64,000 bases of DNA from a plasmid: sequence record NZ_CP011600.1; one strand, written 5' to 3'. The notes beneath the pieces were generated by a model. The model made no database searches. It worked only from the letters and a program-made list of their open reading frames with translations, and had not been told where the DNA came from. How positions within the stretch are numbered: the stretch's first letter is position 1; each line of letters opens with the position of its first letter. A program made the position numbers and the translations under genes. Positions 5,688 through 49,820 of this stretch are shown here, one piece after another.

Positions 5688-6680
5688 CTACAGAAAGACG
5701 CAGTTGCGTTTGCGCCACATCAGATAGCCAAAATTCTTTTTGGACTGCGGAGTGTTGTGCGTGGTGCCCCACAGCTGCGTACTGGCGCCGAAGGGGTGAC
5801 AGCTCGACGTCTCGGGATACATGTTCACCATCTGGTAGCGCCATCGCTCTTTCGGAATGATGGGCGACGGATATTGAAAACAGACGGCGGTGTCTGCCCC
5901 CACGGAATTCATCACCAGGCCTTCCCGGTGCAGTTTGTAGGCCATACGCTCACTGACCAGCAAGGAGGATTCGAGCGGCGAAAACTCACCACTGGTATAG
6001 CCCGTGAACGGGTACATCGAGCCCTGTGCACCGGCGCACCAGAACAGGGGAGACAGGGGCAAACCGGCAGAGCTGGCAGCGGCATCTGCGGCACAGGCAG
6101 CCTGAGCAATCAGGTTGCCAAACAGCGCGGCTTCCGGGTTGATGATCATCGAGAGCGTGGAGTCGTTCCACATCGGGTCGACCTCAGACAGATACGCAAT
6201 GTCCATGTCCCCGGTCTGCATGCAGCCGATACTGGTGATAATGTTCAGCCAGAAAATCAGCGGGTATTTATACCAGTGGACGTGGTAGAACGCGCCCGCA
6301 GCGGGCCGGTCACTCTGTCCTGCCGTGCCTGTACCGGTCCTTCCCAGGTCAATCTTGAAGCCCCCCATATTGACCATCACGCCCGGTTCCCGGGTTACGT
6401 CCGTCATGGCCATCGGTTCCCAGAATCCAATAGCCAGCCCGATGCGATAGAGAATACCGACCGGGCAAATCTGGATGGGTGACGCGGGGTTATTGGTATC
6501 CGGTTGCGGACCGGACGCCAGTTGGATACTGCCCAGCGTCATCGGGAACAGGCATTTCCAGCAGACGTCTGAAATGGGGTTCACCCAGCGGCCGTCACCG
6601 GCATTACTCCCCGCCGCCATCACCGGTTTTGCCAGCATGGCGGAGAAGAGCAGGCAGGTGATCAGCAAGAAACGCTTCAT
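5688..6680 (-). CDS. traU: TraU pilus assembly protein
   Basis: 330 aa (same length as F TraU). Motifs WVNPISDVCWKCLFPMTLGS and WRKRNC closely parallel F TraU. Confidence 0.85.
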   Translation of the reverse strand: MKRFLLITCLLFSAMLAKPVMAAGSNAGDGRWVNPISDVCWKCLFPMTLGSIQLASGPQPDTNNPASPIQICPVGILYRIGLAIGFWEPMAMTDVTREPGVMVNMGGFKIDLGRTGTGTAGQSDRPAAGAFYHVHWYKYPLIFWLNIITSIGCMQTGDMDIAYLSEVDPMWNDSTLSMIINPEAALFGNLIAQAACAADAAASSAGLPLSPLFWCAGAQGSMYPFTGYTSGEFSPLESSLLVSERMAYKLHREGLVMNSVGADTAVCFQYPSPIIPKERWRYQMVNMYPETSSCHPFGASTQLWGTTHNTPQSKKNFGYLMWRKRNCVFL

Positions 6681-15869: not shown

Positions 15870-16502
15870 TCAGTCCTGTTTCGGGTGGCTGGCGGGTTGC
15901 TGCCAGGGAACCTCAGTGAACGCCGTCAGGCGGATGAGACCATCCACGTAATGCACACTGAGCCGCCAGGCTTTGTGCGCATCCGGCAGCGAGATTTTCA
16001 GGTTACCGTTGGTGGTACTGGCACTCAGCGTGCCCTGCGCGATGATGTCACCGGTGGCCGTGTCGGTGATTTCATCATCGATACGGAACACAGAGGACAC
16101 ACCGTTCTTTTTGATGTACTCCGCCTCAGCAGCCAGTTGCTTTTTTATCTCGTCACGGTATTCGGCCGGAACCTGACGCAGCAGGGCAGCATGCTGGGCG
16201 TCCACGGTTTCGGGCGTGACGGAAAGACGGAGGTTAATGAAGGAACGAACCAGCATGCCGTTCAGCGCTGCATCGCCGGAGGCGGCATCGGAGATAAACG
16301 GCCGGTCAAATATCATGGGCGTGGTGAGTGTCTTCTGCGTTTTATAGAAGTGCCACGCCATTGCACCGTTAATGCTGATACCAATGGCCAGAATAAACAC
16401 AAGCAACACCAGTGATGAGATAACCAGGATGACCACCCGGTTACGCCCTTCCCGGACCTGATACTTCATATGCATTTTCCTTCTGAGGGAAATAAGCGCC
16501 AC
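15870..16502 (-). CDS. traE: TraE inner-membrane pilus assembly protein
   Basis: Single N-terminal TM (VVILVISSLVLLVFILAIGI), about 200 aa, between traL and traK. Exact start uncertain. Confidence 0.75.
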   Translation of the reverse strand: MALISLRRKMHMKYQVREGRNRVVILVISSLVLLVFILAIGISINGAMAWHFYKTQKTLTTPMIFDRPFISDAASGDAALNGMLVRSFINLRLSVTPETVDAQHAALLRQVPAEYRDEIKKQLAAEAEYIKKNGVSSVFRIDDEITDTATGDIIAQGTLSASTTNGNLKISLPDAHKAWRLSVHYVDGLIRLTAFTEVPWQQPASHPKQD

Positions 16503-19124: not shown

Positions 19125-19345
19125 GTGTGTGTCAATCCGGCACTGAGTAATATTTTTTTCAGGTGTGTGAATCCGGCACTGTTCACACCAAAAAGGTGTG
19201 TTAATTCAGCACTATGTATCAAAAACGTGTGTGTCAATCCGGCACTATACTGCGTTTTCGTGTGTGTTAATCCGGCACTGTGCCCTGTTTTTATGTGTGT
19301 TAATCCGGCACCATTCAGTATTTTAATGTGTGTCAATCCGGCACT
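19125..19345 (+). repeat. seven direct copies of a ~19-bp motif GTGTGT(Y)AATCCGGCACTG with ~33-bp period
   Basis: Copies start near 19125, 19163, 19196, 19229, 19261, 19294 and 19327. Upstream of traM, in the expected oriT/TraM-binding region. Confidence 0.8.
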
Positions 19346-19404
19346 GCACGCTGAAAATTTATCTATAATTCACTGATTTTAAATAATAGCCACAATAAAC
19401 ACAC

Positions 19405-19525
19405 ACCACAGTGCCGTTTACAGTGCCTGATTGACACACAATTAGGCACTGCATTGACACACAATCCGGCACTGCATTAACACACAATTAGGCACTGAAA
19501 CATGTGTTAATTAACACACACTTTG
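19405..19525 (-). repeat. four inverted-orientation copies of the same motif (CAGTGCC..ATTGACACACA)
   Basis: cagtgcctgattgacacaca, ttaggcactgcattgacacaca, atccggcactgcattaacacaca, ttaggcactgaaacatgtgttaattaacacaca. Opposite orientation to the 7 direct copies. Confidence 0.75.
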
Positions 19526-19584: not shown

Positions 19585-19620
19585 AACTGCAAGATGAAAT
19601 CTTGCGTGGGGTGTGATGAA
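19585..19620 (+). other. oriT: oriT core: inverted repeat GCAAGATGAAATCTTGC followed by F-like nic motif GCGTGGGGTGT|GATG
   Basis: F nic region is TTTGCGTGGGGTGT^GGTGCT preceded by an inverted repeat. Here it is 19604-19618 with predicted nick about 19614/19615 on the + strand, making the + strand the T-strand with the leading region to the right. Confidence 0.6.
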
Positions 19621-19791: not shown

Positions 19792-20361
19792 GTGCGCGCA
19801 TATGAGATTATCAGAATGAAATGGTTAGCTATCGCTGGCTTTGCTGCCGTATTCAGCGCACAGGCCGCGCCGGAATTATGTTTCGATGAAGCTGGTCGTG
19901 ACTATGGTATTGATCCCACGCTTCTGATGGCAATATCAATACAGGAGAGCCGGTTAAATCCGACAGCCATTAACAGCGCCAGTGCGGGCGGTACAGAAGA
20001 CGTCTGTGCGATGCAGCTCAACAGTAATAATTTCGGCAAGCTGAAAAACTTCAATATCACGCGTAAGGATCTGCTTAATAATCCCTGCATCTGCGTGTAC
20101 AGCGGCGCATGGATTTTAGCCAGAAACTTCCAGGCCTACGGCAGGAACTGGGACAGTGTGGGAATGTATAATACAGGACCGAATCCAAAACTGATAAAAG
20201 CAAGGCGTGAATATGCGAGGATCATAAAAAGCATCTACACGGTACTGCTCGCCAGAAAACAGTTACTTGAGAAAGGCACAGGCGATCCCGTTAAAACGTC
20301 GCCATTCAGTGAAAATGCTGACCAGAGAACACCGGTGAAAGACGAAAAAAAGCCCGGTTAA
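19792..20361 (+). CDS. lytic transglycosylase (SLT domain; F gene X/orf169 homolog)
   Basis: Signal peptide plus SLT motifs ESRLNPTAINS ... EDVCAMQLNSNNF ... YNTGP. Position next to oriT as orf169 in F. Confidence 0.8.
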   Translation: MRAYEIIRMKWLAIAGFAAVFSAQAAPELCFDEAGRDYGIDPTLLMAISIQESRLNPTAINSASAGGTEDVCAMQLNSNNFGKLKNFNITRKDLLNNPCICVYSGAWILARNFQAYGRNWDSVGMYNTGPNPKLIKARREYARIIKSIYTVLLARKQLLEKGTGDPVKTSPFSENADQRTPVKDEKKPG

Positions 20362-21209: not shown

Positions 21210-21512
21210 TTAAAAATAATTAGCAGGTACAACACGAAATAAAAAATCGAGTGGCAGAGCAGCTGCAACTGGCCAGCCGTTGCTGATCCAGACAGCGCAG
21301 TAATCCGGGATACCCTTTTCAAATACGTTGAGTTCTTCCGCATCTGCGGGTGGGGTGAAGTCGTGGCATTTCGCGCCCGGAATATCATCCGTCGCAGCAA
21401 AAACCCAGTTAAAGAGGTCGATGATCTGCCTGTCAGTCAGGCATGTGTTTTGATCACATCTTCCGGCGGTTTCTTCTCCGGCGCTTTTGACGTTGACGTT
21501 CTGTGTGTGCAT
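21210..21512 (-). CDS. hypothetical leading-region protein, paralog of 49228..49500, with conserved leader MHTQNVNVKSAGEETAGR
   Basis: 100 aa. Shares DLFNW...FTPPADAEEL...PDY..VWI.SGWPVAAA with the ORF at 49228..49500. RBS AAGGAGAA. Immediately downstream of Frpo-like element A. Confidence 0.5.
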   Translation of the reverse strand: MHTQNVNVKSAGEETAGRCDQNTCLTDRQIIDLFNWVFAATDDIPGAKCHDFTPPADAEELNVFEKGIPDYCAVWISNGWPVAAALPLDFLFRVVPANYF

Positions 21513-22045
21513 CCTGGTTTTCTCCTTCGGTGATGGTTAATCCATCTCCCTTGGCTGGTACTCTCGCGGCAACGGGCAGAGTAGCGACGGCAGACGAATG
21601 ACCGAATGGGCGTCACCGGAGGCCGCAGCGCAAGCGAGTCGTTTACGGCGAGTGCGAACGGGCGAGGAACGGCAACGCGTACCCATTCAGGGCAGGCGGA
21701 TGACGGTGCTACGAAATGCCCTCCGCGTGAGGACGGCAAGGGTGATGGCCTCACCGGACTGGCAGGATGCACACACCCGACCCGGCAACGTCATATCGCC
21801 GGGTCGCCCTTAAAGCGCCGGCGGCCACGTCGCCGGTGCGGTGAGAGCGGCGCGTCCCCCGGACGCAGCAAGCGCGCCCTAGACCTTGCCATCGGACACT
21901 AGCGAGCAGCCCGAAACCGCGCAGCGGGTTCGGCGGAGCTTAGCCGGCGGCCTGCCGCCGGGTTAGCGGAGTGTGGCCCTGACGACCCGGCCGGAACGGA
22001 CGGGGAGCCGAAGGGGGCCAGTGCCCTGAAGAGGTTTTTTGTGTT
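21513..22045 (+). promoter_or_regulatory. Frpo-like structured GC-rich repeat, copy A (putative single-stranded DNA promoter)
   Basis: About 530 bp, over 90 percent identical to copies at about 23788-24315, 25514-25995 (partly) and 43892-44350. Many internal hairpins, for example GCCCGAAACCGCGCAGCGGGTTCGGC. Lies on the predicted transferred strand directly upstream of a minus-strand gene. Confidence 0.5.
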
Positions 22046-22242
22046 CAGTGATCGGGAAAAGACGAATAACCAGGACAGGAATATGCGCCGGCACAGCAGC
22101 AAACATGTCAGGAATACGGGAGAGGGTAAGACACTATGTACCAGGCGTACGGGGAAAAGGGGGCGCGCCGCAGGCGCCCCCGTCCTGCCCGGTTCCCCGC
22201 AGGGGAACGCCCTTCCCGGCCGTGGCCGTTCCGGGCAGATGA

Positions 22243-22599
22243 TCAGCCGATTTCACCCTCTTCCATTTCAACGTACATCTCGGCAGCCATCATTAACGCC
22301 ATGAGTCCATTATGGTGCGGCGTGGTGATGCCAACCTGTTCACACAGGTGCATCAGATCGGCCAGGAAATCGATGATCACGGTCTCCATCTCTTCTGAAT
22401 CATTGGCCAGGCCAGTACGCTCAGCAAACAACCAGAGTGCCTCTGCCGCCAGGGCGGCGCGGTCTGCATTGTTCCAGACAACAGCCGGTGACGGGCGGCC
22501 GGAAACATTCGCCGCCAGATCGGCAAGCTCAGACGCAGGCAAGGATTCACCGCGACTCGCTCCCAACGCAGGCCCCATTTCTTCTTGTGCTTCTGACAT
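22243..22599 (-). CDS. highly acidic small protein (118 aa; about 25 D/E vs 6 K/R) - DNA-mimic-like candidate
   Basis: RBS AGGAGA before the ATG at 22597-22599. The antisense 162-aa track ORF has junk-like composition. Confidence 0.5.
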   Translation of the reverse strand: MSEAQEEMGPALGASRGESLPASELADLAANVSGRPSPAVVWNNADRAALAAEALWLFAERTGLANDSEEMETVIIDFLADLMHLCEQVGITTPHHNGLMALMMAAEMYVEMEEGEIG

Positions 22600-22654
22600 G
22601 ATGAGTTCTCCTGATGGTGGGTGATAAGGCCGCCATTACTGGCGGCCCCGTTTA

Positions 22655-22804
22655 TTACGCCTCAGCCTCCATCCGGGCATTTACGGTAGTCATGAACTGC
22701 TGCCAGAATTCAAAACGCAGCGCGGGCATATGCGCGCGTTTTCCTGCTTTCAGGGCATTTACAAACGCGTTTGCCTGTGCGACGATTTGCGGGTCAAATA
22801 TCAT
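22655..22804 (-). CDS. small ORF (49 aa) not in the ORF track
   Basis: Manual translation gives MIFDPQIVAQANAFVNALKAGKRAHMPALRFEFWQQFMTTVNARMEAEA with RBS GGAGG 7 nt upstream. Below the 60-aa track cutoff. Confidence 0.35.
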   Translation of the reverse strand: MIFDPQIVAQANAFVNALKAGKRAHMPALRFEFWQQFMTTVNARMEAEA

Positions 22805-22889
22805 GGATTAGTCCTCCATAGTGGTTTTGATGTGGACAGCACCTCGACCGTGCTGCCCGTTGATTAAGCAGGGTTGCCACCCTGCTTTT

Positions 22890-23354
22890 TTAATGCCCGG
22901 AATTCAGTTGCTTCTCCGGACAGAAACGGGTGATCACATCCTCGATCAGCGCTTTATGTTTCAGGGTGTGCAGGTCATGGCACTCAAAGAAACGCCCCTC
23001 CACACTCACAAAAATTGCGGTCACATCGCCGCCCGTAAATTCGCGCGACTTGAACGACTCCCCGCCAAATCCCCGGCACCAGTCCAGCGGCGGAAGAACT
23101 TCGAGCTGGTCGATGTACCGGGCTTCGGAAATCTCCACCCACGGACGGCGATAACCCAGGTTTTGCGCTTCCTTCACTTCGGAAAAAGACAGCAGTTCTG
23201 TGTCCGGGTAGATACGGCGCACGGCGTTCAGTGTTTTCGCACCATATTCGGTCACCCATTCGCCGTCCTGCTGCCTGGCCCAGGCATAGACGGTGTTGCA
23301 GGACGGGACATAAAACGCCATCGATGGGGTATTGAGAATTTCAGTTACGGACAT
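22890..23354 (-). CDS. hypothetical leading-region protein (154 aa)
   Basis: Strong RBS AAGGAGATAAGA-ATG. Protein-like composition. The antisense 228-aa ORF was rejected. Confidence 0.5.
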   Translation of the reverse strand: MSVTEILNTPSMAFYVPSCNTVYAWARQQDGEWVTEYGAKTLNAVRRIYPDTELLSFSEVKEAQNLGYRRPWVEISEARYIDQLEVLPPLDWCRGFGGESFKSREFTGGDVTAIFVSVEGRFFECHDLHTLKHKALIEDVITRFCPEKQLNSGH

Positions 23355-23415
23355 TCTTATCTCCTTAGTGATGGTGGCCGGTTACCCGGCCGGGTCGTTG
23401 CGGTTAACGTTCCGG

Positions 23416-23787
23416 TCAGTAATCAGCGGCCAGTTCAGACAACAGCAGGTCGCATTCATCCTGTGCCCGCGCCTCCTCTGACGCAGTTACCATGTAACCC
23501 CGTTTAGCCGCCGCACCGATGAAAGCAGGGCGGTCATTCAGCGGCAGTTTTGCCAGGTGAATCATCGCCATCGATAAGAGGCGGGCTTCATAAATCTCGT
23601 AGTACAGCCCACACCCACGGTTTGCCTGTTTTTCCATCCGTGCCAGAACCACATCGGCGCGAATAACGTCGAACGGGTTACGTGAATGAATGTTTGTGAT
23701 AAAGCCATCAGTACGCATTGGTTTTATCCCCCATCTTCCGGCGGTTTCCTCTCCGGCGGTTTTGACGTTGACGTTCTGTGTGTGCAT
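23416..23787 (-). CDS. hypothetical protein carrying the conserved leader MHTQNVNVKTAGEETAGR
   Basis: 123 aa, downstream of Frpo-like copy B. Body unrelated to the other leader-bearing ORFs. In-frame internal Met (MRTDGF...) is an alternative start. Confidence 0.45.
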   Translation of the reverse strand: MHTQNVNVKTAGEETAGRWGIKPMRTDGFITNIHSRNPFDVIRADVVLARMEKQANRGCGLYYEIYEARLLSMAMIHLAKLPLNDRPAFIGAAAKRGYMVTASEEARAQDECDLLLSELAADY

Positions 23788-24315
23788 CCTGGTTTTCTCC
23801 TTCGGTGATGGTTAATCCATCTCCCTGGCTGGTACTCTCGCGGCAACGGGCCGAGTAGCGACGGCAGACGAATGACCGAATGGGCGTCACCGGAGGCCGC
23901 AGCGCAAGCGAGCCGTTTACGGCGAGTGCGAACGGGCGAGGAACGGCAACGCGTACCCATTCAGGGCAGGCGGATGACGGTGCTACGAACAGCCCTCCGC
24001 GTGAGGACAGCAGGGGAGATGGCCTCACCGGACTGGCAGGATGCACACACCCGACCCGGCAACGTCATATCGCCGGGTCGCCCTTAAAGCGCCGGCGCCC
24101 GTCGCCGGTGCGGTGAGAGCGGCGCGTCCCCCGGACGCAGCAAGCGCGCCCCGGACCTTCGCCATCGGACACTAGCGAGCAGCCCGAAACCCGAAGGGGT
24201 TCGGCGGAGCTTAGCCGGCGGCCTGCCGCCGGGTTAGCGGAGTGTGGCCCTGACGACCCGGCCGGAACGGACGGGGAGCCGAAGGGGGCCAGTGCCCTGA
24301 AGAGGGTTTTGCTTT
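23788..24315 (+). promoter_or_regulatory. Frpo-like structured repeat, copy B
   Basis: Near-identical to copy A across about 520 bp. Internal track ORFs (23708..24046, 23872..24087, 24065..24658) are artefacts of the repeat. Confidence 0.5.
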
Positions 24316-24560
24316 GAATGCATCCTGGAACACCCGGTAACAGCACGCACACAGGCAGCCACCGGAAACCGCAGCACACCCGGACCCACTCACCGGATAT
24401 AATGATGAGAGTGACGCCGCGAAGGGGGAGGCCCGGTGCGTCAGCACCGGCTTCCCCCGGCACGCAGTGCCGGTGGTTTTCGGGCCGTGCGCCGGGGCAG
24501 GCCACCGGGCAGACGGCTCCCGGTCTGGTACGCACCAGGAGCCTGTGGTGATGAGCTGTC

Positions 24561-24863
24561 TCAGGCCGGTTGTTTTCTGTTAAACGTGACGGCGTAATCG
24601 TCATAACTGAGACAGCCCCGCAGCCGCGTGAGCCTGACCACATTCTCCGCCAGGCCATTCATCGTCAGTATCCGCTCGATACCTGCAAAGAGGTCTTCAC
24701 GCTCACCGAGCGGAAACCAGAGGTTGCTGTTGCTGCCGCTCAGGAGCGGATGGCCGCAAAAATGCACTCCCCTGCCCTGCCTGGTCAGGCAGACCGTAAC
24801 AGTGATATCAGCGCGGATATGCTCTGCTGATGTACTGAGACCAGGTTGTCCGGTCATTTCCAT
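24561..24863 (-). CDS. hypothetical protein (100 aa)
   Basis: RBS AGGAGAACATC-ATG. Follows the stop of 24935..25513. Confidence 0.4.
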   Translation of the reverse strand: MEMTGQPGLSTSAEHIRADITVTVCLTRQGRGVHFCGHPLLSGSNSNLWFPLGEREDLFAGIERILTMNGLAENVVRLTRLRGCLSYDDYAVTFNRKQPA

Positions 24864-24934
24864 GATGTTCTCCTTCCTGCGAATTCAGATGATGTGTCAC
24901 CCCGGCAAGGCCTGCCGGGGTGTGGCGCCGTGAT

Positions 24935-25513
24935 TCAGCGGACGTACTGCCAGTGACAGAAGGGACTCTCGTCGTCCCCTTTTTTCAGGTGTTCACGGGC
25001 GTACTTCTCCAGTCCCTTGTGTTCTGCCTCAAAAATCGCTCTCGCATCGTCGTTCATCACACCGGAAGCCATATAGACCTGCGTTGTTTCGTACTCGGCT
25101 GTTTCCGCGCACTCGTCATCGCCGATCCGGTTAGCACAATGCACCACCCTTGCTTCCCATGTTTCCGGCACGGCCTGCGGCTGCGGGCGGTATACAAACA
25201 CCGTGACCAGCAGTTTTTCCTGCGGTTTTATCAGCATCATCTCGATACCTGAACGGACACCCCTGTCGCCAAAAACCCACTCATCGAGCGCGAACCGCGC
25301 GGCTGACAGATACTCAATGCCCATGTCAAACGACGTGCGAATTGCAGCCGTATTCACTGCCGGGGATCCGGGAATAAACAGGCTGCGGCGATACGAACGC
25401 GCAGCACGTTCCCGGATGTCGTTAACATCACGGTTTAATGCCGTTGAATTCTGGTTTTCACCCCCTGTTTCGGCGGTTGTGGTTGCGGCGGTTTTGCTGT
25501 TCTGTGTTTTCAT
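24935..25513 (-). CDS. hypothetical leading-region protein (192 aa) with divergent leader MKTQNSKTAATTTAETGGENQ
   Basis: Downstream of Frpo-like copy C. The N-terminus is a diverged version of the conserved leader. Confidence 0.45.
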   Translation of the reverse strand: MKTQNSKTAATTTAETGGENQNSTALNRDVNDIRERAARSYRRSLFIPGSPAVNTAAIRTSFDMGIEYLSAARFALDEWVFGDRGVRSGIEMMLIKPQEKLLVTVFVYRPQPQAVPETWEARVVHCANRIGDDECAETAEYETTQVYMASGVMNDDARAIFEAEHKGLEKYAREHLKKGDDESPFCHWQYVR

Positions 25514-25995
25514 GCTGGTTCTCCTGTGTTGGTTACTGAAACCCTGTTTCGGTCGGAATGGCGCGGCAAAGGGCCAGGTAGCGACGGCAGACGAATGACC
25601 GAATGGGCGTCACCGGAGGCCGCAGCGCAAGCGAGCCGTTTACGGCGAGTGCGAACGGGCGAGGAACGGCGAGGCGAACCCATTCAGGGCAGGCGGATGA
25701 CGGTGCTACAGCAGCCTGACGCAGCCATCGCCCGGAACAGGCTGTACCGGCGGAGGATGAGCATGAAAACAGACAGAACAGTGCCCCTGCCCTGAGAGGC
25801 CGCGTGCGGCCGGTGAAAGCGGCGCGTCCCCCGGACGCAGCAAGCGCGCCCCGGACCTTTGCCATCGGACACCAGGAGCAGCCCGAAACCGCGCAGCGGG
25901 TTCGGCGGAGCTTAGCCGGCGGCCTGCCGCCGGGTTAGCGGAGTGTGGCCCTGACGCCCCGGCCGGAACGGACGGGGAGCCGAAGGGGGCCAGCT
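25514..25995 (+). promoter_or_regulatory. Frpo-like structured repeat, copy C (distal two-thirds conserved, gene-proximal part diverged)
   Basis: Shares ...GTAGCGACGGCAGACGAATGACCGAATGGGCGTCACCGGAGGCCGCAGCGCAAGCGAG... and ...GCGGCGCGTCCCCCGGACGCAGCAAGCGCGCCCCGGACC...GCCCGAAACCGCGCAGCGGGTTCGGCGGAGCTTAGCCGGCGGCCTGCCGCCGGGTTAGCGGAGTGTGGCCCTGACG... with copies A, B and D. Confidence 0.45.
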
Positions 25996-26769: not shown

Positions 26770-27057
26770 TCAGAGAATGCGTTTGACCGCCTCGCTATAT
26801 ACTTCCGAGCGTTCTCTTTTCCCAACAGAAATCACGAAAACGACAACTTTCTCGTCTATAACCTGGTATACAAGGCGATAGCCTGAAGACCGGAGCTTAA
26901 TCTTGTAACAATCAGGCATACCACGGAGCTTGTTTGCTTCAATCCGGGGTGACTCAAGTACTTCAACCAGCTTCTTTTTCAACTGTTCACGTACCGTCGA
27001 GCCCAGCTTTCGCCATTCCTTTAGTGCCCGCTCGTCAAAATCCAGAAAATACGCCAT
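26770..27057 (-). CDS. relE: RelE/ParE-family type II toxin
   Basis: 95 aa with the ...YRLVYQVIDEKVVVFVISVGKRERSEVY... RelE fold signature. Start overlaps the relB stop. Confidence 0.8.
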   Translation of the reverse strand: MAYFLDFDERALKEWRKLGSTVREQLKKKLVEVLESPRIEANKLRGMPDCYKIKLRSSGYRLVYQVIDEKVVVFVISVGKRERSEVYSEAVKRIL

Positions 27058-27296
27058 CAGAGTTCATCCAGCGTCACACGTACTGGCTTAGGATTACAAA
27101 GTCGTTCTTTCACTATCTCCACAAGTTCAGCATCTTCATCACTCAGGAGTGTCTGTTTGAACGGCAAGCGTTCATTGTCAGCGATATACTCGAGCATGAG
27201 ACGAAGCGCTTCAGAAGGAGTTACGCCCATTTTTTCAAGCGCGGCGTAAGAACGCGCTTTAAGTTCATCGTCAATACGTAGGTTAATGCTACCCAT
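27057..27296 (-). CDS. relB: RelB/DinJ-family antitoxin
   Basis: 79 aa. MGSINLRIDDELKARSYAALEKMGVTPSEALRLMLEYIA is typical of RelB RHH antitoxins. Confidence 0.75.
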   Translation of the reverse strand: MGSINLRIDDELKARSYAALEKMGVTPSEALRLMLEYIADNERLPFKQTLLSDEDAELVEIVKERLCNPKPVRVTLDEL

Positions 27297-27955: not shown

Positions 27956-28693
27956 ATGTATACCAGCCTTGATACACAGGGCCGGTTGAGCGCTCGCCTG
28001 CTTTCAGCTCAGGCGCGTTCGGCTTGTCTGTTTTTCCTGTTGTTACTGCTTTTCTACAGCCAGGGCGCGTATGCGCACGGCGTGGCGGAAGGCGACAAAG
28101 GGTACATCCAGGAAATCACCGGGGTGAACATCATCCCGTTTATCTACCTTGGCGCGAAGCACATGGTGACCGGTTACGATCATCTGCTGTTTCTGTTCGG
28201 GGTGATTTTCTTTCTCTACAAAATGCGTGATATCGGGCTGTACGTTAGCCTGTTCGCTATCGGGCATTCAACGACGCTGCTCATCGGCACCTTCTTTGAT
28301 ATCAGCGTCAGTGCTTACCTTATTGACGCCATTATCGGGCTGTCCGTGGTCTATAAAGCGCTTGATAACCTCGGGGCATTCCAGCGCTGGTTTGGCGTTC
28401 AGCCCAACACGAAGCTTGCGACGCTCATCTTTGGATTCTTCCACGGTTTTGGTCTGGCAACCAAAATCCAGGAATTCGAAATCTCTCCCGATGGCCTGTT
28501 TGTCAACCTGATTGCCTTCAACATTGGCGTTGAGATCGGCCAGCTGCTCGCGCTGAGCGCCATCCTGATCGTTATGAGCTACTGGCGGCAAACGGCGAGC
28601 TTTTTCCGACACGCTTATACCGCCAATGTGGTGATGATGAGCGCGGGATTTCTGTTAATGAGTTACCAGCTTTGTGGCTACATTTTAGCCTGA
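27956..28693 (+). CDS. HupE/UreJ-family Ni/Co transporter-like membrane protein
   Basis: HupE/UreJ signature HMVTGYDHLLF plus second motif FGFFHGFG. Six predicted TM segments. Confidence 0.65.
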   Translation: MYTSLDTQGRLSARLLSAQARSACLFFLLLLLFYSQGAYAHGVAEGDKGYIQEITGVNIIPFIYLGAKHMVTGYDHLLFLFGVIFFLYKMRDIGLYVSLFAIGHSTTLLIGTFFDISVSAYLIDAIIGLSVVYKALDNLGAFQRWFGVQPNTKLATLIFGFFHGFGLATKIQEFEISPDGLFVNLIAFNIGVEIGQLLALSAILIVMSYWRQTASFFRHAYTANVVMMSAGFLLMSYQLCGYILA

Positions 28694-28706
28694 GGGAGAC
28701 AAAACA

Positions 28707-29396
28707 ATGTACAACACTGATTTACCAACACGCGCAGAATTACCTTCTGCCATCAAACTGATGCAGTCCACTATCCTCGCCGCCATCGTGGCGCTGACGC
28801 TGCTGATCACCGTCGTCATGCCTTCGGAATACGGCATTGATCCTACTGGCGTGGGTCGTTTACTGGGGCTTAAGCAGATGGGAGAAATCAAAACGCAGCT
28901 TGCCGAAGAAGCTGATGCCGATAATCAGGCCAGCGCTGTTCAGCAAGGACAGCTGGCTGCGCCAGTTAATGAGCGACCGATCCCGGATAATCCTCCGGCA
29001 ATAACGCAGAACACCTACCCGGAGCTGAGCGTTCCGGCGACCACGCGCGCGCCGGAAGTACCATCGGCTGGCTCGCAACGTCATCAGATGCTCATCACCC
29101 TGAAGCCTAACGAAGCTGCTGAAGTTAAACTGGAAATGCGCAAAGATGCCCGCGTGACCTATCAGTGGACAAGTTCCGGACCGGTAAACGTGGATGCGCA
29201 CGGCGATCCGGTCAACGCCCCGAAAGGCTTCTACCATGGCTATGGTAAAGCCCGGCAGATCACATCCGGAGACGGCGTTTTACAGGCCGCGTTCGAGGGT
29301 AAACATGGCTGGTTCTGGCGAAATCGTGGTTCTGAGACCATCACGATCCAGCTTGATACAACCGGCGACTACCTGAACATCAAACGGGTTATCTGA
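28707..29396 (+). CDS. membrane-anchored periplasmic protein, unknown function
   Basis: 229 aa, N-terminal TM, co-directional and adjacent to the HupE/UreJ gene. Confidence 0.45.
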   Translation: MYNTDLPTRAELPSAIKLMQSTILAAIVALTLLITVVMPSEYGIDPTGVGRLLGLKQMGEIKTQLAEEADADNQASAVQQGQLAAPVNERPIPDNPPAITQNTYPELSVPATTRAPEVPSAGSQRHQMLITLKPNEAAEVKLEMRKDARVTYQWTSSGPVNVDAHGDPVNAPKGFYHGYGKARQITSGDGVLQAAFEGKHGWFWRNRGSETITIQLDTTGDYLNIKRVI

Positions 29397-43576: not shown

Positions 43577-43891
43577 TTAAATGTTGATCCCATTGCGCGC
43601 GATCAGACGCACAAACTGTTTGAAATGGTCAGCCTCGACCACCGGAACGTGGCAAAAATCTTTATCCACACCCGCACTGACGATGTAGTGATAAGCCCTT
43701 TTCATTTTTTCCGGGGCGCGGCTGCGATAGCTTTTCAGCGACGCGAGGGAGTCGAACTCCAACACATCCATTTCCTCCGTTGAGTTTTTCTCGCCTTCGG
43801 CGATCAGAATGAGTAAAGGCGAGGGGTTTTTAATCCATCTTCCGGCGGTTTCTTCTCCGGCGCTTTTGACGTTGACGTTCTGTGTGTGCAT
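43577..43891 (-). CDS. hypothetical protein carrying the conserved leader MHTQNVNVKSAGEETAGR (sits where ssb is found in F)
   Basis: 104 aa, downstream of Frpo-like copy D. Internal GGAGG-ATG (MDVLEFDSL...) is an alternative start. Confidence 0.45.
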   Translation of the reverse strand: MHTQNVNVKSAGEETAGRWIKNPSPLLILIAEGEKNSTEEMDVLEFDSLASLKSYRSRAPEKMKRAYHYIVSAGVDKDFCHVPVVEADHFKQFVRLIARNGINI

Positions 43892-44350
43892 CCTGGTTTT
43901 CTCCTTCGGTGACGGTTAATCCATCTCCCTTGGCTGGTACTCTCGCGGCAACGGGCCAGGTAGCGACGGCGAACGGAAAAGACCAGGGCGCGCCTGCGCG
44001 TGCACTTCACCCTGGTGTTTTTCGGGCGAACGGTGCTACAGCAGCCCTCCGCGTGAGGACAGCAGTGGGAGATGGCCTCACCGGACTGACAGAATGCACA
44101 CACACGACCCGGCAACGTCACACCGCCGGGTCGCCCTTAAAGCGCCGGCGCCCGTCGCCGGCGCGGTGAGAGCGGCGCGTCCCCCGGACGCAGCAAGCGC
44201 GCCCCGGACGTTGCCATCGGACACTAGCGAGCAGCCCGAAACCCGAAGGGGTTCGGCGGAGCTTAGCCGGCGGCCTGCCGCCGGGTTAGCGGAGTGTGGC
44301 CCTGACGACCCGGCCGGCACGGACGGGAAGCCGAAGGGGGCCATGTTCAG
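43892..44350 (+). promoter_or_regulatory. Frpo-like structured repeat, copy D
   Basis: Gene-proximal 120 bp and distal about 230 bp match copies A and B. Central part differs. Confidence 0.45.
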
Positions 44351-45344: not shown

Positions 45345-45776
45345 TCAGTCCAGCGCGCGCTGAATAACAGCGGCATCCGGGTGGGTTTCAATAAACGCCA
45401 TGAGCGCTGAAAAGCGGTTGCAGAAATGGGCGCACAACTCGTCATTGTCATGGTGACTGTGATAAAAACTGCGGTGATTGAGCACCAGTGCCGTCACGAT
45501 GATGCCCGCGACTTCGCCGCTCACCTCCTGCTCAAACCAGTTATCCGGGTTGCAGAACATGACAGTTTCCCTGTCCGGCACCATGAAACCTGCACCATCC
45601 GGCAGGCTGTAGTACTCCCAGAATCCCCCGTTGTAGCCGTCGATATACCGGCTGGCATAGGCATACACGGACAACTCGGACAACATGAAATCGCTGCTGA
45701 ACAGGGACGGCAAAAAAGTCAGGCGCTGTGCGCCGTCAAGACGTGTCGCATCGGTGTGGCTGAGTGTGGTGATCAT
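45345..45776 (-). CDS. klcA: KlcA/ArdB-family antirestriction protein
   Basis: 143 aa. ...VYAYASRYIDGYNGGFWEYYSLPDGAGFMVPD...HPDAAVIQRALD parallels RK2 KlcA ...YAWMRRLCERYNGAYWHYYALSDGGFYMAPD...HPEAAAIYRAID. Confidence 0.75.
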   Translation of the reverse strand: MITTLSHTDATRLDGAQRLTFLPSLFSSDFMLSELSVYAYASRYIDGYNGGFWEYYSLPDGAGFMVPDRETVMFCNPDNWFEQEVSGEVAGIIVTALVLNHRSFYHSHHDNDELCAHFCNRFSALMAFIETHPDAAVIQRALD

Positions 45777-45783
45777 AAATCCT

Positions 45784-46150
45784 CCGCTGGTTAAGTGGGT
45801 TACTGTTCCGGCTTGCGCCGTGCCGACACGACAGCCCGGCGGTCAGCGGAAGAATGCAAGGGCGACACCGGAAGCCGCACGCGCCGTTGTGAGCGGGCTG
45901 AATGCGCCGCGAACAACGGGGAACGGGTGAGGATGGCGAGCGCCAGCGTCCCTTGCAGGCGCCGCAGCCGGGCTACAGTGAAGGCACGGCGTTAGCCGTC
46001 ACCGCACGGAGGTCAGCATTATCAGTGGTCCGGTCGCAGCCCGCAGGGATACGGCCGGACATCAGGGAGGAGCAGCGCGACACCCTTTTTCCCGTAAGGC
46101 GTCGCCCGCCAGGGTGAAGCCGGGTAACAGCGGAGCCGGCGACAACCTTA
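45784..46150 (+). repeat. family-2 GC-rich structured intergenic repeat (GCCGTGCCGACAC...GGGCTGAATGC...GAACGGGTGAGGATG...GTGAAGGCACGGCG), copy 1
   Basis: Three clear copies (45784-46150, 47590-47880, 48140-48420), each directly upstream of a minus-strand gene. Termini are inverted (GCCGTGCC...GGCACGGC). Confidence 0.6.
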
Positions 46151-46659: not shown

Positions 46660-46881
46660 TTAGTCCTGAAAACTCTCGTCCAGCTCCAGCATCTCCCGGT
46701 AGGCCTCCAGAAAACGGGCATTGATCCGTCTCAGGGTCTGAGCGGCCATGCGTCCGGCCAGCGTGGCCGAATCATGCCGGTGCTCTGATTCCAGACGGTT
46801 CAGCATCATCCGGACGTCACACATGGCGTTGCTGAGCGCTGCGACGTCGGCGCGCAATGCTTCCAGTCCCGGGTAATTCAT
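46660..46881 (-). CDS. small hypothetical protein (73 aa), coupled downstream of the methylase
   Basis: RBS GGAGG. Start overlaps the methylase stop. Confidence 0.4.
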   Translation of the reverse strand: MNYPGLEALRADVAALSNAMCDVRMMLNRLESEHRHDSATLAGRMAAQTLRRINARFLEAYREMLELDESFQD

Positions 46882-47570
46882 GCGGCCTCCGGCCAGTCAG
46901 GATGAAAGGCGCCATCGTTGGCCGCCGGCATCCGGCGCGCCCGTTCGACCTGCGCCAGACGGCGGACGCCGGCGGCGTGGTATTCCTCAAGCAGTTCGAT
47001 GCCGATATAACGACGGCTGGCTTCGGCGGCTGCCACGCAGGTCGATCCGGAACCCGCAAACGGGTCGAGGATGATCGCACCCGGGCGTGTGAGGGATTCG
47101 ATGAGCGGGCGAAGGCTCTGCACCGGTTTTTCCGTCGGGTGGTGGCGGTTGCCCGTGTATTTCCAGGGAATGACGTCAGGGATGGGGCAATCCGGTGTCT
47201 GCGGCCGCCCTTTGGCCAGCAGATAGGCACTTTCGTGGGTGTAGCCCACAAACGTGGATTTCGAGGCATACGTTTTGGCAAATACCACGTGCCCGACAAT
47301 CCGGAAGCCGGCCTGTTTCCAGGCGTTAATGAACAGATCGGCACGGTTCCACGCGTAGAAACTGACCATCAGGCTGTCCTGTTTCAGCACGCGGTACATC
47401 TGCTGGCAGGCAGGCTCCAGCCATTCCGGCGTGTTATCGCCGGCGAGCGTGCGGCCTGAACGGTCGCGGTAGCCGACGAGATACGGCGGATCGGTCAGAA
47501 TAAAATCGACGGCACGGGACGGAAAACGGGACATGACCTGCACACAGTCACCCAGGATAAAACGGGACAT
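46878..47570 (-). CDS. orphan DNA N6-adenine/N4-cytosine methyltransferase (DPPY motif)
   Basis: Start at MSRFILGDC (ATG 47568-47570, RBS GGAGAG). Motif IV ILTDPPY, motif I region DPFAGSGSTCVAA. No adjacent endonuclease. Confidence 0.75.
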   Translation of the reverse strand: MSRFILGDCVQVMSRFPSRAVDFILTDPPYLVGYRDRSGRTLAGDNTPEWLEPACQQMYRVLKQDSLMVSFYAWNRADLFINAWKQAGFRIVGHVVFAKTYASKSTFVGYTHESAYLLAKGRPQTPDCPIPDVIPWKYTGNRHHPTEKPVQSLRPLIESLTRPGAIILDPFAGSGSTCVAAAEASRRYIGIELLEEYHAAGVRRLAQVERARRMPAANDGAFHPDWPEAA

Positions 47571-47589
47571 AGCACTCTCCTCTCTCATA

Positions 47590-47880
47590 TGCGGCACCCT
47601 CTTGCGCCGTGCCGACACAAAAGCCCGGCTTTAAGCGGCAGGCGAAAAGGGCGTCACCGCAAGCCGCACGCGCCGCTGTGAGCGGGCTGAATGCACCGTG
47701 AACAGCGGGGAACGGGTGAGGATGACGGCGTCAGCGCACCCTTAGAGACGACGCGGCCGGGCTAGCGTGAAGGCACGGCGTGCAAACACACCGGCGCCCG
47801 TCACAACGGGGGACGGTTCTGTCGCGGAGCGCAGCGACCTCCTTTCGCAAAAGAGGCCGCCCGAAGGCGACCGGCAGGCT
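47590..47880 (+). repeat. family-2 structured intergenic repeat, copy 2
   Basis: See 45784..46150. Confidence 0.6.
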
Positions 47881-47882
47881 TA

Positions 47883-48116
47883 CTACTCCCGCATCCTTTC
47901 GATGGCCATCTCCAGTGTGTACCAGTTGAACCCCACCTCTGCATCATGCTGGTCGTCGGCGATTTCCATCGCCGCCTCAATGTCTTCATCTGTCAGCGAG
48001 GGATCGAGAGAAAGAAAATCCTCCGCCAGCCAGAACGTCCCCAGACAGAGGGCATCTTCCGGGTATCTCTGCAACCGCGCGATAAGGCCGGCAATGGTCA
48101 TTGGGGATCTGTGCAT
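47883..48116 (-). CDS. small acidic hypothetical protein (77 aa)
   Basis: Start at MHRSPMTIAGL (ATG 48114-48116). Confidence 0.35.
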   Translation of the reverse strand: MHRSPMTIAGLIARLQRYPEDALCLGTFWLAEDFLSLDPSLTDEDIEAAMEIADDQHDAEVGFNWYTLEMAIERMRE

Positions 48117-48139
48117 GTTTGTCTCCGGTATAGTGCGGC

Positions 48140-48420
48140 CAGACAGGATTGCCTGCGCCGTGCCGGCACACAAGCCCGGTGAAAAGCCGAAGTCGGAGGG
48201 GCGACACCGCAAGCCGCAGCGCAAAACCTTTACGGGCTGAATGCGCCGTAAAGGGTGCGAACGGGTGAGGATGGCGAGCGGCAGCGGTACCCGGATGACG
48301 ATGCGGCCGGGCTACCGTGAAGGCACGGTGCAGGTGGAAGCATATCCGGCTCCGGCTGGCGAATTTCGTCAGTCCGGAAAAAAGCGGGCCAGGCCCGCTT
48401 CGGATATCAGCAAAGCCGGG
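48140..48420 (+). repeat. family-2 structured intergenic repeat, copy 3
   Basis: See 45784..46150. Confidence 0.55.
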
Positions 48421-49228
48421 ACATAAATGCCCGCATGGCCTGGATGCGCTCATGCGACCGTATCCGTTCCTGCCAGTCATTGAAGAACCAGACTGGAGTA
48501 TGACGCGTCAGGTTCATCTGCAGTGTCAGGGTATTGCCGGTGTTCACCGTGGCCGGAATGCCCAGCAGGCTGAGTTGCACAAACGTCATGTCTGCCGCCA
48601 GTGGATCGATATCAATGGTGGTGACCAGAAGCTGTGTCGCGGGATTCAGCCCGGCCTGCAGCATAATCTCCGCAAATGCAATGACCATGCCCCCTGCCCC
48701 GCTTGTTGGCTCCTGCAGACTGATAAAGGGGCAGGATTTCAGCTGCGCCAGTAAGTCACCGGCGGCCAGCTGCGCCAGCAAAGATGAAACGGAATGCGGC
48801 GTGAAGTATTGCCCCATCTCATCGGCTCCCAGCTCAAGCTCCATGTAAACCGAACCCAGAAAATCCTGGTGCGCTTCTGAGAGCGCAGCGACCATGAGCG
48901 AAAACAGCGTATGCATCCGGTCGATATCCGACGCTTTATAGCGGGCGATAATCTGGCTGCAGCGCGCCCTGCTTTCCGGCGTGTGAATGCGGACCAGATC
49001 CAGTTCGCTGGCCGCCAGGGTGACAAAATCACGAAAGACCTCACTGCGCCGCAGATACGTCGCTGTCTGGCAGAATTCATCAATGAAGGCCTGCCGCGTT
49101 TGCCCCCGGACTTTGCGTGCAGGAACGCTAACAACTGCGGGCAGTGCCCGGGCAGCTGTCAGGTCTGAAACGGGTACTGATGGCGTGATGGCCATATCCG
49201 GTGCATCAAACATAGAGAGCTGAGACAT
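48407..49228 (-). CDS. HsdM-like N6-methyltransferase-domain protein, possibly degenerate
   Basis: GQYFTPHSVSSLLAQL...EPTSGAGGMVI matches HsdM motifs X and I. No convincing NPPF/Y motif IV was seen. Confidence 0.45.
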   Translation of the reverse strand: MSQLSMFDAPDMAITPSVPVSDLTAARALPAVVSVPARKVRGQTRQAFIDEFCQTATYLRRSEVFRDFVTLAASELDLVRIHTPESRARCSQIIARYKASDIDRMHTLFSLMVAALSEAHQDFLGSVYMELELGADEMGQYFTPHSVSSLLAQLAAGDLLAQLKSCPFISLQEPTSGAGGMVIAFAEIMLQAGLNPATQLLVTTIDIDPLAADMTFVQLSLLGIPATVNTGNTLTLQMNLTRHTPVWFFNDWQERIRSHERIQAMRAFMSRLC

Positions 49229-49500
49229 TACGCCCCCTCCCCTGGCAGCGTGATAAAAAGACCGTCCATGGGTGCAGCTGCAGCAACAGGATAGCCTGAG
49301 ACAATCCAGACCTGCAGATAATCCGGTCCCGCATCCCAGAAGGCCACAAGTTCTTCGCTGTCTGCCGGTGGGGTGAAATTATCCGGGAACTGCAGACCGG
49401 GCACAGTCATGATCCAGTCAAACAGGTCCAGGACCTGGTCTGTTGAAAGTGATGATTCTTTAGATTCTTTTGCTGCGGTGTTGACGTTTTTCTGTGACAT
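49228..49500 (-). CDS. hypothetical leading-region protein, paralog of 21210..21512
   Basis: Start MSQKNVNTAAKESKES (ATG 49498-49500, RBS GGAGGA). Start/stop overlap with the upstream gene. Confidence 0.5.
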   Translation of the reverse strand: MSQKNVNTAAKESKESSLSTDQVLDLFDWIMTVPGLQFPDNFTPPADSEELVAFWDAGPDYLQVWIVSGYPVAAAAPMDGLFITLPGEGA

Positions 49501-49820
49501 GTTGGATTTCCTCCGGGTTAAGTTGATGTTTCTCTGAGTTCCTTCGCCGCAGAAACAGGCAACCCACACGGAGACAAGGAGGATGCAGGGAGAACGACAA
49601 AGCCGCAGCCCGGAGCCTGCGAAGGGACCGGGTGCCGTCGTTCAGCTCTGCGGTCCTTGCAGCCGACGGCCGTGTGGGACAGTCCTGTGCGGTGAAGAAC
49701 GGGAGAGACATCAGTTCGGGGACAGAACAGGTCACAGTTCCGGAACGCAACGCGTGACGGGCTAAAGCGTGCCGGTACGGCACAGTGAAAGCGACATGGC
49801 CAGAGGCCATTGTCAGCGCA
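49501..49820 (+). promoter_or_regulatory. GC-rich structured element upstream of 49228..49500 (third, more diverged Frpo-like element)
   Basis: Hairpin-rich, for example GCAGCCCGGAGCCTGCGAAGGGACCGGGTGC and GCGTGCCGGTACGGCAC. Same position relative to its gene as the other elements. Confidence 0.35.

Follow-up and report, generated by a model that had tools for sequence, protein, structure and literature searches.

The 64,000-nucleotide (nt) stretch of plasmid record NZ_CP011600.1 that was analysed here (the window) belongs to a conjugative plasmid that is F-like and of the Klebsiella/Enterobacter/Phytobacter type, with CP026189.1 and Phytobacter plasmids as its closest database matches. Its leading region contains four GC-rich repeats (R1–R4) and a diverged fifth copy (R5), each of which runs into the first codons of a minus-strand gene, so that proteins with unrelated bodies share one N-terminal leader. 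As a whole, we consider it probable that these repeats are class 1 Frpo/ssi single-stranded DNA (ssDNA) promoters of a subtype that we named type A, that the base of their hairpin stem carries the Shine-Dalgarno (SD) sequence, the ATG and about 12 codons of the downstream gene, and that the leader is kept as DNA of the promoter element. This analysis established the family membership of the repeats, their hairpin, its covariation and strand asymmetry, the constraint at the nucleotide level, the fusion to unrelated protein bodies and the predicted disorder of the leader.

The repeats were located by repeat finding and compared in a MAFFT alignment. With the leader included, R1–R4 span 513–587 nt and have a GC content of 65–67%, compared to 54% for the window. 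Pairwise identity is 97.2% between R1 and R2, 90% between R2 and R4, 88% between R1 and R4, and 71–79% between R3 and the others. R1 (21459..22045, + strand) consists of a long hairpin on the transferred (T) strand at about 21478-21802, which overlaps the leader codons at 21459-21512, and small distal hairpins at 21805-22045. It is followed by an open reading frame (ORF) of 100 amino acids (21210..21512, minus strand) that starts at the in-stem ATG (MHTQNVNVKSAGEETAGR...) and is a paralogue of 49228..49500. R2 (23734..24315, + strand), with a long hairpin at 23753-24076 and a GC-rich apical module at 23848-23978, precedes an ORF of 123 amino acids (23416..23787, minus strand) with the same leader and a body in the 'RTDGF(V/I)xNIHSRNPFD' family. 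The diverged element R3 (25460..25995, + strand, hairpin at about 25483-25786) precedes an ORF of 192 amino acids (24935..25513, minus strand) with a diverged leader (MKTQNSKTAATTTAETGG). In R4 (43838..44350, + strand, hairpin at about 43867-44120) the apical module is shorter and the GTGCACTTCACCCTGG box is kept; the leader-bearing ORF behind it (43577..43891, minus strand, 104 amino acids) is YgeA-like, its homology to F YgeA having been seen by eye. R5 (49447..49760, + strand, nhmmer E = 2e-11) has a hairpin at about 49485-49740 with the start codon (CAT, 49498-49500) in the stem, and the ORF behind it (49228..49500, minus strand, 90 amino acids) opens with a diverged leader (MSQKNVNTAAKESKES).

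In all, the conserved block consists of GGAG-N9-ATG and 54 further bases, and it ends abruptly after GGAAGATG. An initial annotation of the window, made without database searches, had described four GC-rich repeats upstream of minus-strand genes, a conserved block that continues past the ribosome-binding site (RBS) through the ATG and 18 codons, and three proteins that share one leader and then diverge. Repeat finding and the alignment bore out the coordinates and the extent of the block. The three proteins (21210..21512, 23416..23787 and 43577..43891) begin with MHTQNVNVK(S/T)AGEETAGR and fall into different BLASTP families after residue 22, and the diverged leaders that had been reported on 24935..25513 and 49228..49500 are present, the latter behind R5. 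The initial annotation also named an assembly or annotation artefact as a possible source of the shared leader and proposed a survey of other plasmids for ORFs that begin with it. Complete plasmid records in PLSDB with a DNA match to the element number 1,329, and the leader peptide is encoded in 1,358, of which 1,023 are plasmids typed as conjugative. Thus, the sharing of the leader is neither due to chance nor an assembly artefact.

Folded as ssDNA, the + strand of R2 has a minimum free energy (MFE) of -161.7 kcal/mol (z = -5.85), versus -146.1 kcal/mol (z = -3.35) for the minus strand. The MFE of R1 is -160.9 kcal/mol, and the best 300-nt window of R4 reaches -89.1 kcal/mol. R1–R4 share one architecture, an imperfect hairpin of about 300 nt with the ATG in the stem base, followed by small hairpins. 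A scan that is independent of homology, using 300-nt windows below -75 kcal/mol (the criterion of Wen et al., PMC12672017) over 19.6-52 kb, gave its main peaks at R1–R4, at two hairpins before antirestriction and methylase genes, and at about 48.1-48.4 kb, while a few isolated stretches elsewhere (e.g., 46800-47099) were barely under the threshold. The strong folding of the + strand that had been anticipated was thus found in all four elements. In R2, the start codon lies in a helix between 23778-23791 (GTGTGTGCATCCTG) and 24037-24050 (CAGGATGCACACAC). Outward of this helix the stem continues with GACGTTG/CAACGTC and then CCGGCG/CGCCGG, which places leader codons 1 to about 12 in the stem.

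The pairing of the start region is maintained across plasmids. We collected 27 type A copies from 12 plasmids of Enterobacter, Klebsiella, Serratia, Pantoea, Yersinia, Erwinia, Salmonella bongori and Escherichia albertii, with relaxases of the MOBF and MOBP types, and six further copies were added later. In these copies the distal arm was placed by homology, not by folding. In an alignment of 24 sequences from 12 plasmids, the start-codon helix is 97.9% paired, with compensatory changes in 5/12 pairs. Its covariation score is 0.200 versus 0.082 in shuffles, none of 500 shuffles scored as high, and slid controls are at most 63% paired. For example, codon 2 is CAC or AAC together with distal ATGCAC or ATGAAC, position -2 varies between G, C and A with its partner, and the R3 leader ATGAAAACACAGAACAG pairs with the opposite-strand distal CTGTTCTGTCTGTTTTCAT through compensatory changes. 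Over the whole hairpin, nine full-length elements with the GC-rich apical module have 92 pairs, of which 93.1% are paired and 21 are compensatory; again none of 500 shuffles reached the score, and all slid controls are at most 46% paired. Imperfect pairs on the + strand comprise 77 G·T versus 13 A·C (p = 3e-12). Selection on pairing has therefore acted on the + strand and not on the mRNA-sense strand.

This is the strand that would be transferred first. The tra genes lie on the minus strand, between 1 and about 19 kb of the window, and an F-type nic-like motif, CTTGCGTGGGGTGT|GATG, can be read directly in the + strand at 19601..19618; presumably it corresponds to the F nic region GCGTGGGGTGT|GGTGC. 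As the motif is on the + strand, this is therefore the T strand, which leaves 5'-first from about 19.6 kb, and the leading region extends from 20 kb onward. The gene content agrees with this. A lytic transglycosylase-like ORF (19792..20361, + strand) is followed by DUF932, psiA, psiB and a ParB-like gene on the minus strand, and the sok RNA is also present. All leader-carrying ORFs are on the minus strand and thus have the T strand as their template, which is the geometry that an ssDNA promoter requires. The earlier placement of the repeats on the first-transferred strand therefore stands.

When R1–R4 were compared pairwise with the leading region of F by blastn (word size 7, E < 1e-3), there were no matches, and homology emerged with an iterated profile only. 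This nhmmer profile of the proximal 150 nt matched F Frpo1 (E = 5e-20) and F Frpo2 (E = 6e-20), and a MAFFT alignment with the F elements, 'Frpo* 5' and 'Frpo* 7' of Samuel et al. and copies from other plasmids revealed homology block by block. These matches and the alignment place R1–R4, as sequences, in the class 1 Frpo/ssi family of ssDNA promoters, so the earlier description of the repeats as Frpo-like holds at the level of profiles. Like F Frpo1 and Frpo2 (ssiD), they lie on the T strand of the leading region, form an imperfect hairpin of about 300 nt with homologous stem-base and mid-stem blocks, have the first distal hairpin in common, and are repeated before ygeA-DUF932 and ssb/psiB-type clusters. 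The F elements differ in that the RBS and ATG of ygeA and ssb are 45-60 nt outside the stem, and in that the stretch homologous to the leader is untranslated (...GGCAGGTCCCCGCAAAACGTCAAAACCGCGGCTCCCGAAACTCAAAAGATG...), with AGG in place of the type A ATG and a 6-nt deletion. They also have an AT-rich apical UP/-35 hairpin, which is replaced in R1–R4.

On the evidence of this alignment, the leader is the terminal 54 nt of the Frpo element, made coding in type A, which has the SD and the ATG in the stem. As these 54 nt are homologous to the terminal non-coding stretch of F Frpo1 and Frpo2, the leader was not grafted separately. Of the modular promoter-plus-leader unit that had been suggested initially, we thus retain the single module found on many unrelated ORFs, but not the leader as a graft of its own. 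Codons 1–12 form the stem base and pair with a distal pseudo-copy of the start region (AGGATGCACACAC). Among 14 distinct leaders of canonical length, the entropy in codons 2-8 is 0.14/0.14/0.19 at codon positions 1/2/3, so the third position is not relaxed; in codons 13-19 it is 1.07/0.78/1.05. Two Yersinia ruckeri copies keep the nucleotides but are out of frame over 8-10 codons between two indels, the second of which brings the frame back ahead of the junction; this yields the leader products MNTQTSRPPLPESTERY and MHTQTTSTSNPPLQEPTERY. Likewise, the conserved junction AAGATGGGG is read in two frames among different copies. In an AlphaFold2 model of the YgeA-like protein 43577..43891 (10 homologues in the alignment), residues 1-23 have a predicted local distance difference test (pLDDT) score below 50 and no secondary structure, in contrast to a folded body whose block means are mostly at pLDDT 78-88 from residue 41 on. 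We therefore favour a constraint that acts on the DNA rather than on the peptide, and not the initially proposed tag. The suggestion that the leader is a native part of the protein only in the 21210/49228 pair does not hold either, as F YgeA, the homologue of 43577..43891, also starts with MSTRNIHVNTAS.

Two other kinds of leader were considered and rejected. A secretion signal peptide does not fit MHTQNVNVKSAGEETAGR, which is hydrophilic and has no hydrophobic stretch, nor the disordered tail in the AlphaFold2 model; an attenuation-type leader peptide or upstream ORF does not fit the in-frame fusion of leader and body in 27/28 copies. The leader begins with AUG-CACACACA-GAAC, which has a CA multimer directly 3' of the start codon. 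Downstream CA multimers are translation enhancers (Martin-Farmer & Janssen 1999, as summarised in the review PMC4611024). By this resemblance the CACACACA run may be a translational enhancer, whereas the same bases in the leader are needed for pairing in the T-strand stem.

Several features of the sequences point to use of the in-stem ATG. In 27/28 copies an open frame runs from it into bodies of 81-257 amino acids, the SD spacing is 9 nt, and annotated coding sequence (CDS) starts in public records coincide with it. Where the leader has indels, these are of 6 nt or of 3 + 3 nt and leave the frame intact, or they compensate each other (both Yersinia copies). The junction ATG (GGAAGATG) was rejected as an alternative start: it is out of frame in R1, R2 and R4 (ATG TGA in R1) and in frame only in the 'SRKMG' variants. 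The bodies of 27 proteins belong to at least nine unrelated families, and a profile search adds more, with 98 clusters of short proteins that carry the leader; this search returned only proteins of at most 79 amino acids, so full-length carriers are under-sampled in it. PF03230 antirestriction and DUF905 are among the leader-bearing bodies, and other members of these families (e.g., 45345..45776 in the window and F YfjA) have no leader. Within the YgeA-like family, the leader subtypes (GEETAGRW versus AQESSRKMG) do not track the similarity of the bodies, and one E. coli member starts at the junction, without the leader.

In the mechanism that we propose, the + strand would enter the recipient 5'-first from nic at about 19.6 kb, and each element would fold into an imperfect hairpin of about 300 nt with three or four smaller ones after it. 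On the model of F Frpo1 and Frpo2, the RNA polymerase of the host would initiate within the stem and read the T strand in the direction of oriT, across the gene or genes downstream, until complementary-strand synthesis erases the hairpin. The last 54 nt of the element would be read as an N-terminal extension of 18-19 residues in frame with the following ORF, which would make the element a portable cassette for the initiation of both transcription and translation. The leader would then be conserved because it is promoter-element DNA, comprising the stem base, the terminal mini-hairpin and the element boundary, and not as a functional peptide. As the leader DNA belongs to the promoter element, unrelated early-expressed genes would inherit the same protein start. 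That repeated class 1 elements drive early, transient expression of leading genes is established (PMC9849209, PMC11541004, PMC12672017).

A number of observations weigh against this mechanism or parts of it. The apical AT-rich UP/-35 module of the family is replaced by a GC-rich module in R1–R3 and by a shorter one with GTGCACTTCACCCTGG in R4; the classical AT-rich apical hairpin (AAAAAGTTTTTG...) is kept in F and in other type A copies, and R1–R4 are without it. A sigma-70 consensus scan of 21.4-26.1 kb found 0 sites, and a relaxed hexamer scan of the T strand found no acceptable -35/-10 pair on the 3' arm of R1–R4, although the initial annotation had proposed to look for a stem with such hexamers; the best relaxed matches, TTGACG-17-CATCCT, are on the 5' arm at the stem base. 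Furthermore, a working Frpo2-acrIIA4 construct (Samuel et al., PMC11541004 supplement 11) is without the lower ~75 nt of the 3' arm. With regard to the leader, a similar N-terminus is encoded outside the stem in F YgeA (MSTRNIHVNTAS) and in a homologue from K. pneumoniae (MSTQNVNVKPSTKES), with a number of synonymous changes, so the leader may also have some role at the level of the peptide or the mRNA. Leader similarity tracks the plasmid no better than the gene family (mean identity 0.741 versus 0.721, p = 0.76), and gene conversion from arm to arm in the inverted repeat could mimic part of the covariation.

With the apical module replaced and no -35/-10 pair, promoter activity in R1–R4 rests on homology and context, and we infer that the promoters fire, and where transcription would start, from their family membership and surroundings. 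The GC-rich apical module itself is 76-98% identical in 74 plasmid records from six or more genera. The Frpo2-acrIIA4 construct works without the lower 3' arm, so the base helix is not needed for promoter firing in F. This helix is dispensable in F, yet it is conserved with covariation, which points to another role. The helix might stabilise the hairpin against SSB, hold up synthesis of the complementary strand, or hide the start site in mRNA that reads through the element. The stem of F ssp2 is a roadblock to replication (10.64898/2026.01.09.698686). In an RNA fold of R2, the AUG region CCAGGAUGCACACA is paired with its mimic (z = -2.9).

This leads to an extension of the mechanism that we regard as possible but put forward only tentatively, in which the RBS and start codon in the stem base form a two-level, 'zygote-only' switch and a platform for gene capture. 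Transcripts that begin in the ssDNA hairpin would not contain the upstream arm, which would leave their CA-rich start site accessible. In mRNA that reads through from the established double-stranded plasmid both arms would be present, and the AUG would lie hidden within a long RNA hairpin. An ORF joined in frame to the fixed boundary would be transcribed and translated during entry only. If true, this would account for the way in which leading regions acquire anti-defence and establishment genes that are unrelated to one another.

Other explanations concern either the promoter or the leader. It is unlikely that the copies in the window are not promoters, now or ever, and act as ssDNA priming signals, roadblocks or decaying repeats while the genes are expressed from elsewhere. 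The missing AT-rich module and -35/-10 pair would fit such a role, as would the roadblock function of the F ssp2 stem and the original definition of Frpo as an ssi priming signal (PMC7690428). However, the two roles, roadblock and promoter, are found together in F, conservation of the GC-rich apical module across the 74 records is tighter than pairing alone demands, and each copy immediately precedes an ORF of matching orientation that relies on the ATG of that copy. Moreover, the consensus scan detected no conventional promoter in the whole of 21.4-26.1 kb from which these genes could be expressed instead. We consider it very improbable that the structure acts in a + sense antisense RNA over the start regions, similar to FinP or Sok, instead of in transferred ssDNA. 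The G·T asymmetry, as G·U, would fit a + sense RNA equally well and the TTGACG hexamers at the stem base are on the + strand, but there is no acceptable -10 beside them, and the elements are homologous to Frpo, whose ssDNA promoter activity is experimentally demonstrated. An Rfam scan of the window at gathering thresholds matched sok alone and none of the elements.

That the leader is a functional peptide, serving stability, interaction, translocation or co-translational control, and that its position in the stem is incidental, also seems a poor prospect. Its consensus, M(H/N)T(Q/R)NVNVKTA, varies little between genera, and the F and K. pneumoniae proteins mentioned above retain it outside the stem, with several of their differences synonymous. 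This is countered by third codon positions that are as conserved as the first and second, by the two compensated frameshifts that alter 8-10 residues while the DNA is kept, by the conservation of homologous F Frpo1 and Frpo2 DNA that is non-coding, by the covariation of variable leader sites with the distal arm, and by a predicted disordered leader without a hydrophobic core. Even less credible to us is an overlap without selection, in which duplication or gene conversion of a ~0.55-kb repeat overran the first 54 nt of a gene. Within this plasmid, the 88-97% identity of R1, R2 and R4 means that the shared leader needs no selection. Yet the boundary ...AAGATG(G) is seen again in F and, at 60-80% identity, in at least 30 copies on at least 18 plasmids; leader indels keep or restore the frame, and the pairing of the start region is maintained by compensatory changes.

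A Frpo/ssi promoter with coding DNA in its stem base thus remains our preferred explanation, and it can be compared with other published elements. The low-certainty 'Frpo* 5-7' of Samuel et al. 2024 (Salmonella enterica AAEPNF010000010.1; PMC11541004 supplementary table 2) belong to the same subfamily as R1–R4 and share with them the modules GGTTAATCCATCTC, CGGTGCTAC, the distal mimic GGATGAACACACCCGAC and distal CGCCATCAGACCCTAGCC. They differ in that they keep the classical AAAAAGTTTTTG apical hairpin, and they are listed as intergenic sequence alone, so that the part of the stem inside the CDS is cut off and the shared leader is unremarked. The ColIb-P9 ssi1-3 and the pESBL class 1-3 ssDNA promoters (Wen et al. 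2025, PMC12672017) are likewise dispersed hairpin promoters that each head an operon of the leading region, and R1–R4 fall under the same limit of < -75 kcal/mol per 300 nt as the pESBL promoters, as it is given there. TSSs (transcription start sites) were mapped for pESBL, whereas R1–R4 are putative promoters described from their sequence; an embedded start codon or a shared leader is not reported in the portion of PMC12672017 available to us. In the searchable literature, which excludes most subscription papers, no description of the embedded start region or the shared leader was found. What is new here is the start region in the stem base and the shared leader, while repeated Frpo-like promoters in leading regions were already known.

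The ssDNA promoters of leading regions are the subject of active research, as they control the genes that a conjugative plasmid expresses first, including anti-restriction, anti-SOS and anti-CRISPR genes. Type A elements are found in about 1,350 PLSDB records (Enterobacterales), including many resistance plasmids of Klebsiella, Enterobacter and Citrobacter, and beyond transcription they would provide at least nine unrelated protein families with an SD, a start codon and the ~18 residues that follow from it. Surveys that are restricted to intergenic sequence truncate the type A hairpins, which may explain the low-certainty scoring of published candidates. The shared N-terminus can be used as a search handle for the first genes of early operons, and the role of the hairpin base of an ssDNA promoter becomes open to cheap, concrete experiments.

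Additional arrangements of the start region were seen on F and on other plasmids. In the F record, a short ORF at 15990-16035 (ATGATGGGGGCTGAAAACCAGAGAGAGGAGAAAGCAGGATGA) starts at the conserved AAGATG junction of Frpo1, and its end overlaps the ygeA start codon; behind Frpo2, the junction ATG is in frame with ssb. K. pneumoniae plasmid pKPC2_015093 has type A elements (ATG in the stem) and F-type elements together, with a type A element at 98.6-98.8 kb of its record. At 28665-28859 of this plasmid, an F-type hairpin is followed by a second start region and a leader-like gene start, as in F Frpo1-ygeA, which suggests a tandem duplication of the start module. Two Pantoea MOBP plasmids have copies of the element with the GC-rich apical module and without the start region and leader (profile positions 2-69 only), and there an annotated DUF4942 gene extends into the element. 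ORFs of at least 100 codons also cross the GC-rich hairpins of R1–R4 (21437..21772, 23708..24046, 25533..25865 and 43804..44121, minus strand, plus overlapping + strand ORFs). These are almost certainly spurious, and such ORFs are sometimes annotated, e.g., as the F 'hypothetical protein' at 5785..6090 of the F record.

Further hairpins of the leading region resemble other promoter classes. On the + strand, GC-rich T-strand hairpins at 45777-46000 and 47619-47790 precede the PF03230 antirestriction gene (45345..45776) and a DNA methylase gene (46878..47618), respectively. They cover a further repeat, fold below -75 kcal/mol and are similar to 'Frpo* 1/3' of Samuel et al.; probably both are ssDNA promoters of class 2. 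A 300-nt window at 48120-48419 (+ strand) has a predicted folding energy of -83.4 kcal/mol on the T strand, lies between 48407..49228 and ORFs at 47883-48480, and may be an additional ssDNA promoter. The apical module of R2 and the class-2-like hairpins of the window share a box of 28-40 nt (AATGGGCGTCACCGGAGGCCGCA-GCGC; z = 5-7.5), and a comparison of this module with F Frpo3/ssp, a class 2 promoter of the klcA/ardA type, gave no significant match. We do not claim that R1–R3 are chimeras of class 1 and class 2, for which this single shared box is the support. Weak PLSDB matches to the GC-rich apical module (80% over 65 nt) also come from a ~105-kb Variovorax plasmid and from plasmids of ~41-59 kb that belong to uncultured bacteria.

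Two more features accompany the leading region. Between traM and the nic-like site, at 19130-19353 and 19400-19520, there are seven 33-bp direct repeats (GTGTGTnAATCCGGCACTG) with inverted copies nearby, which look like binding sites of relaxosome proteins. Further downstream, a RelE/RelB-like pair (26770-27296) and a block of + strand genes (~27-39 kb) split the leading-type gene clusters at 20-26 and 39.5-51 kb, and together they look like an insertion into the leading region.

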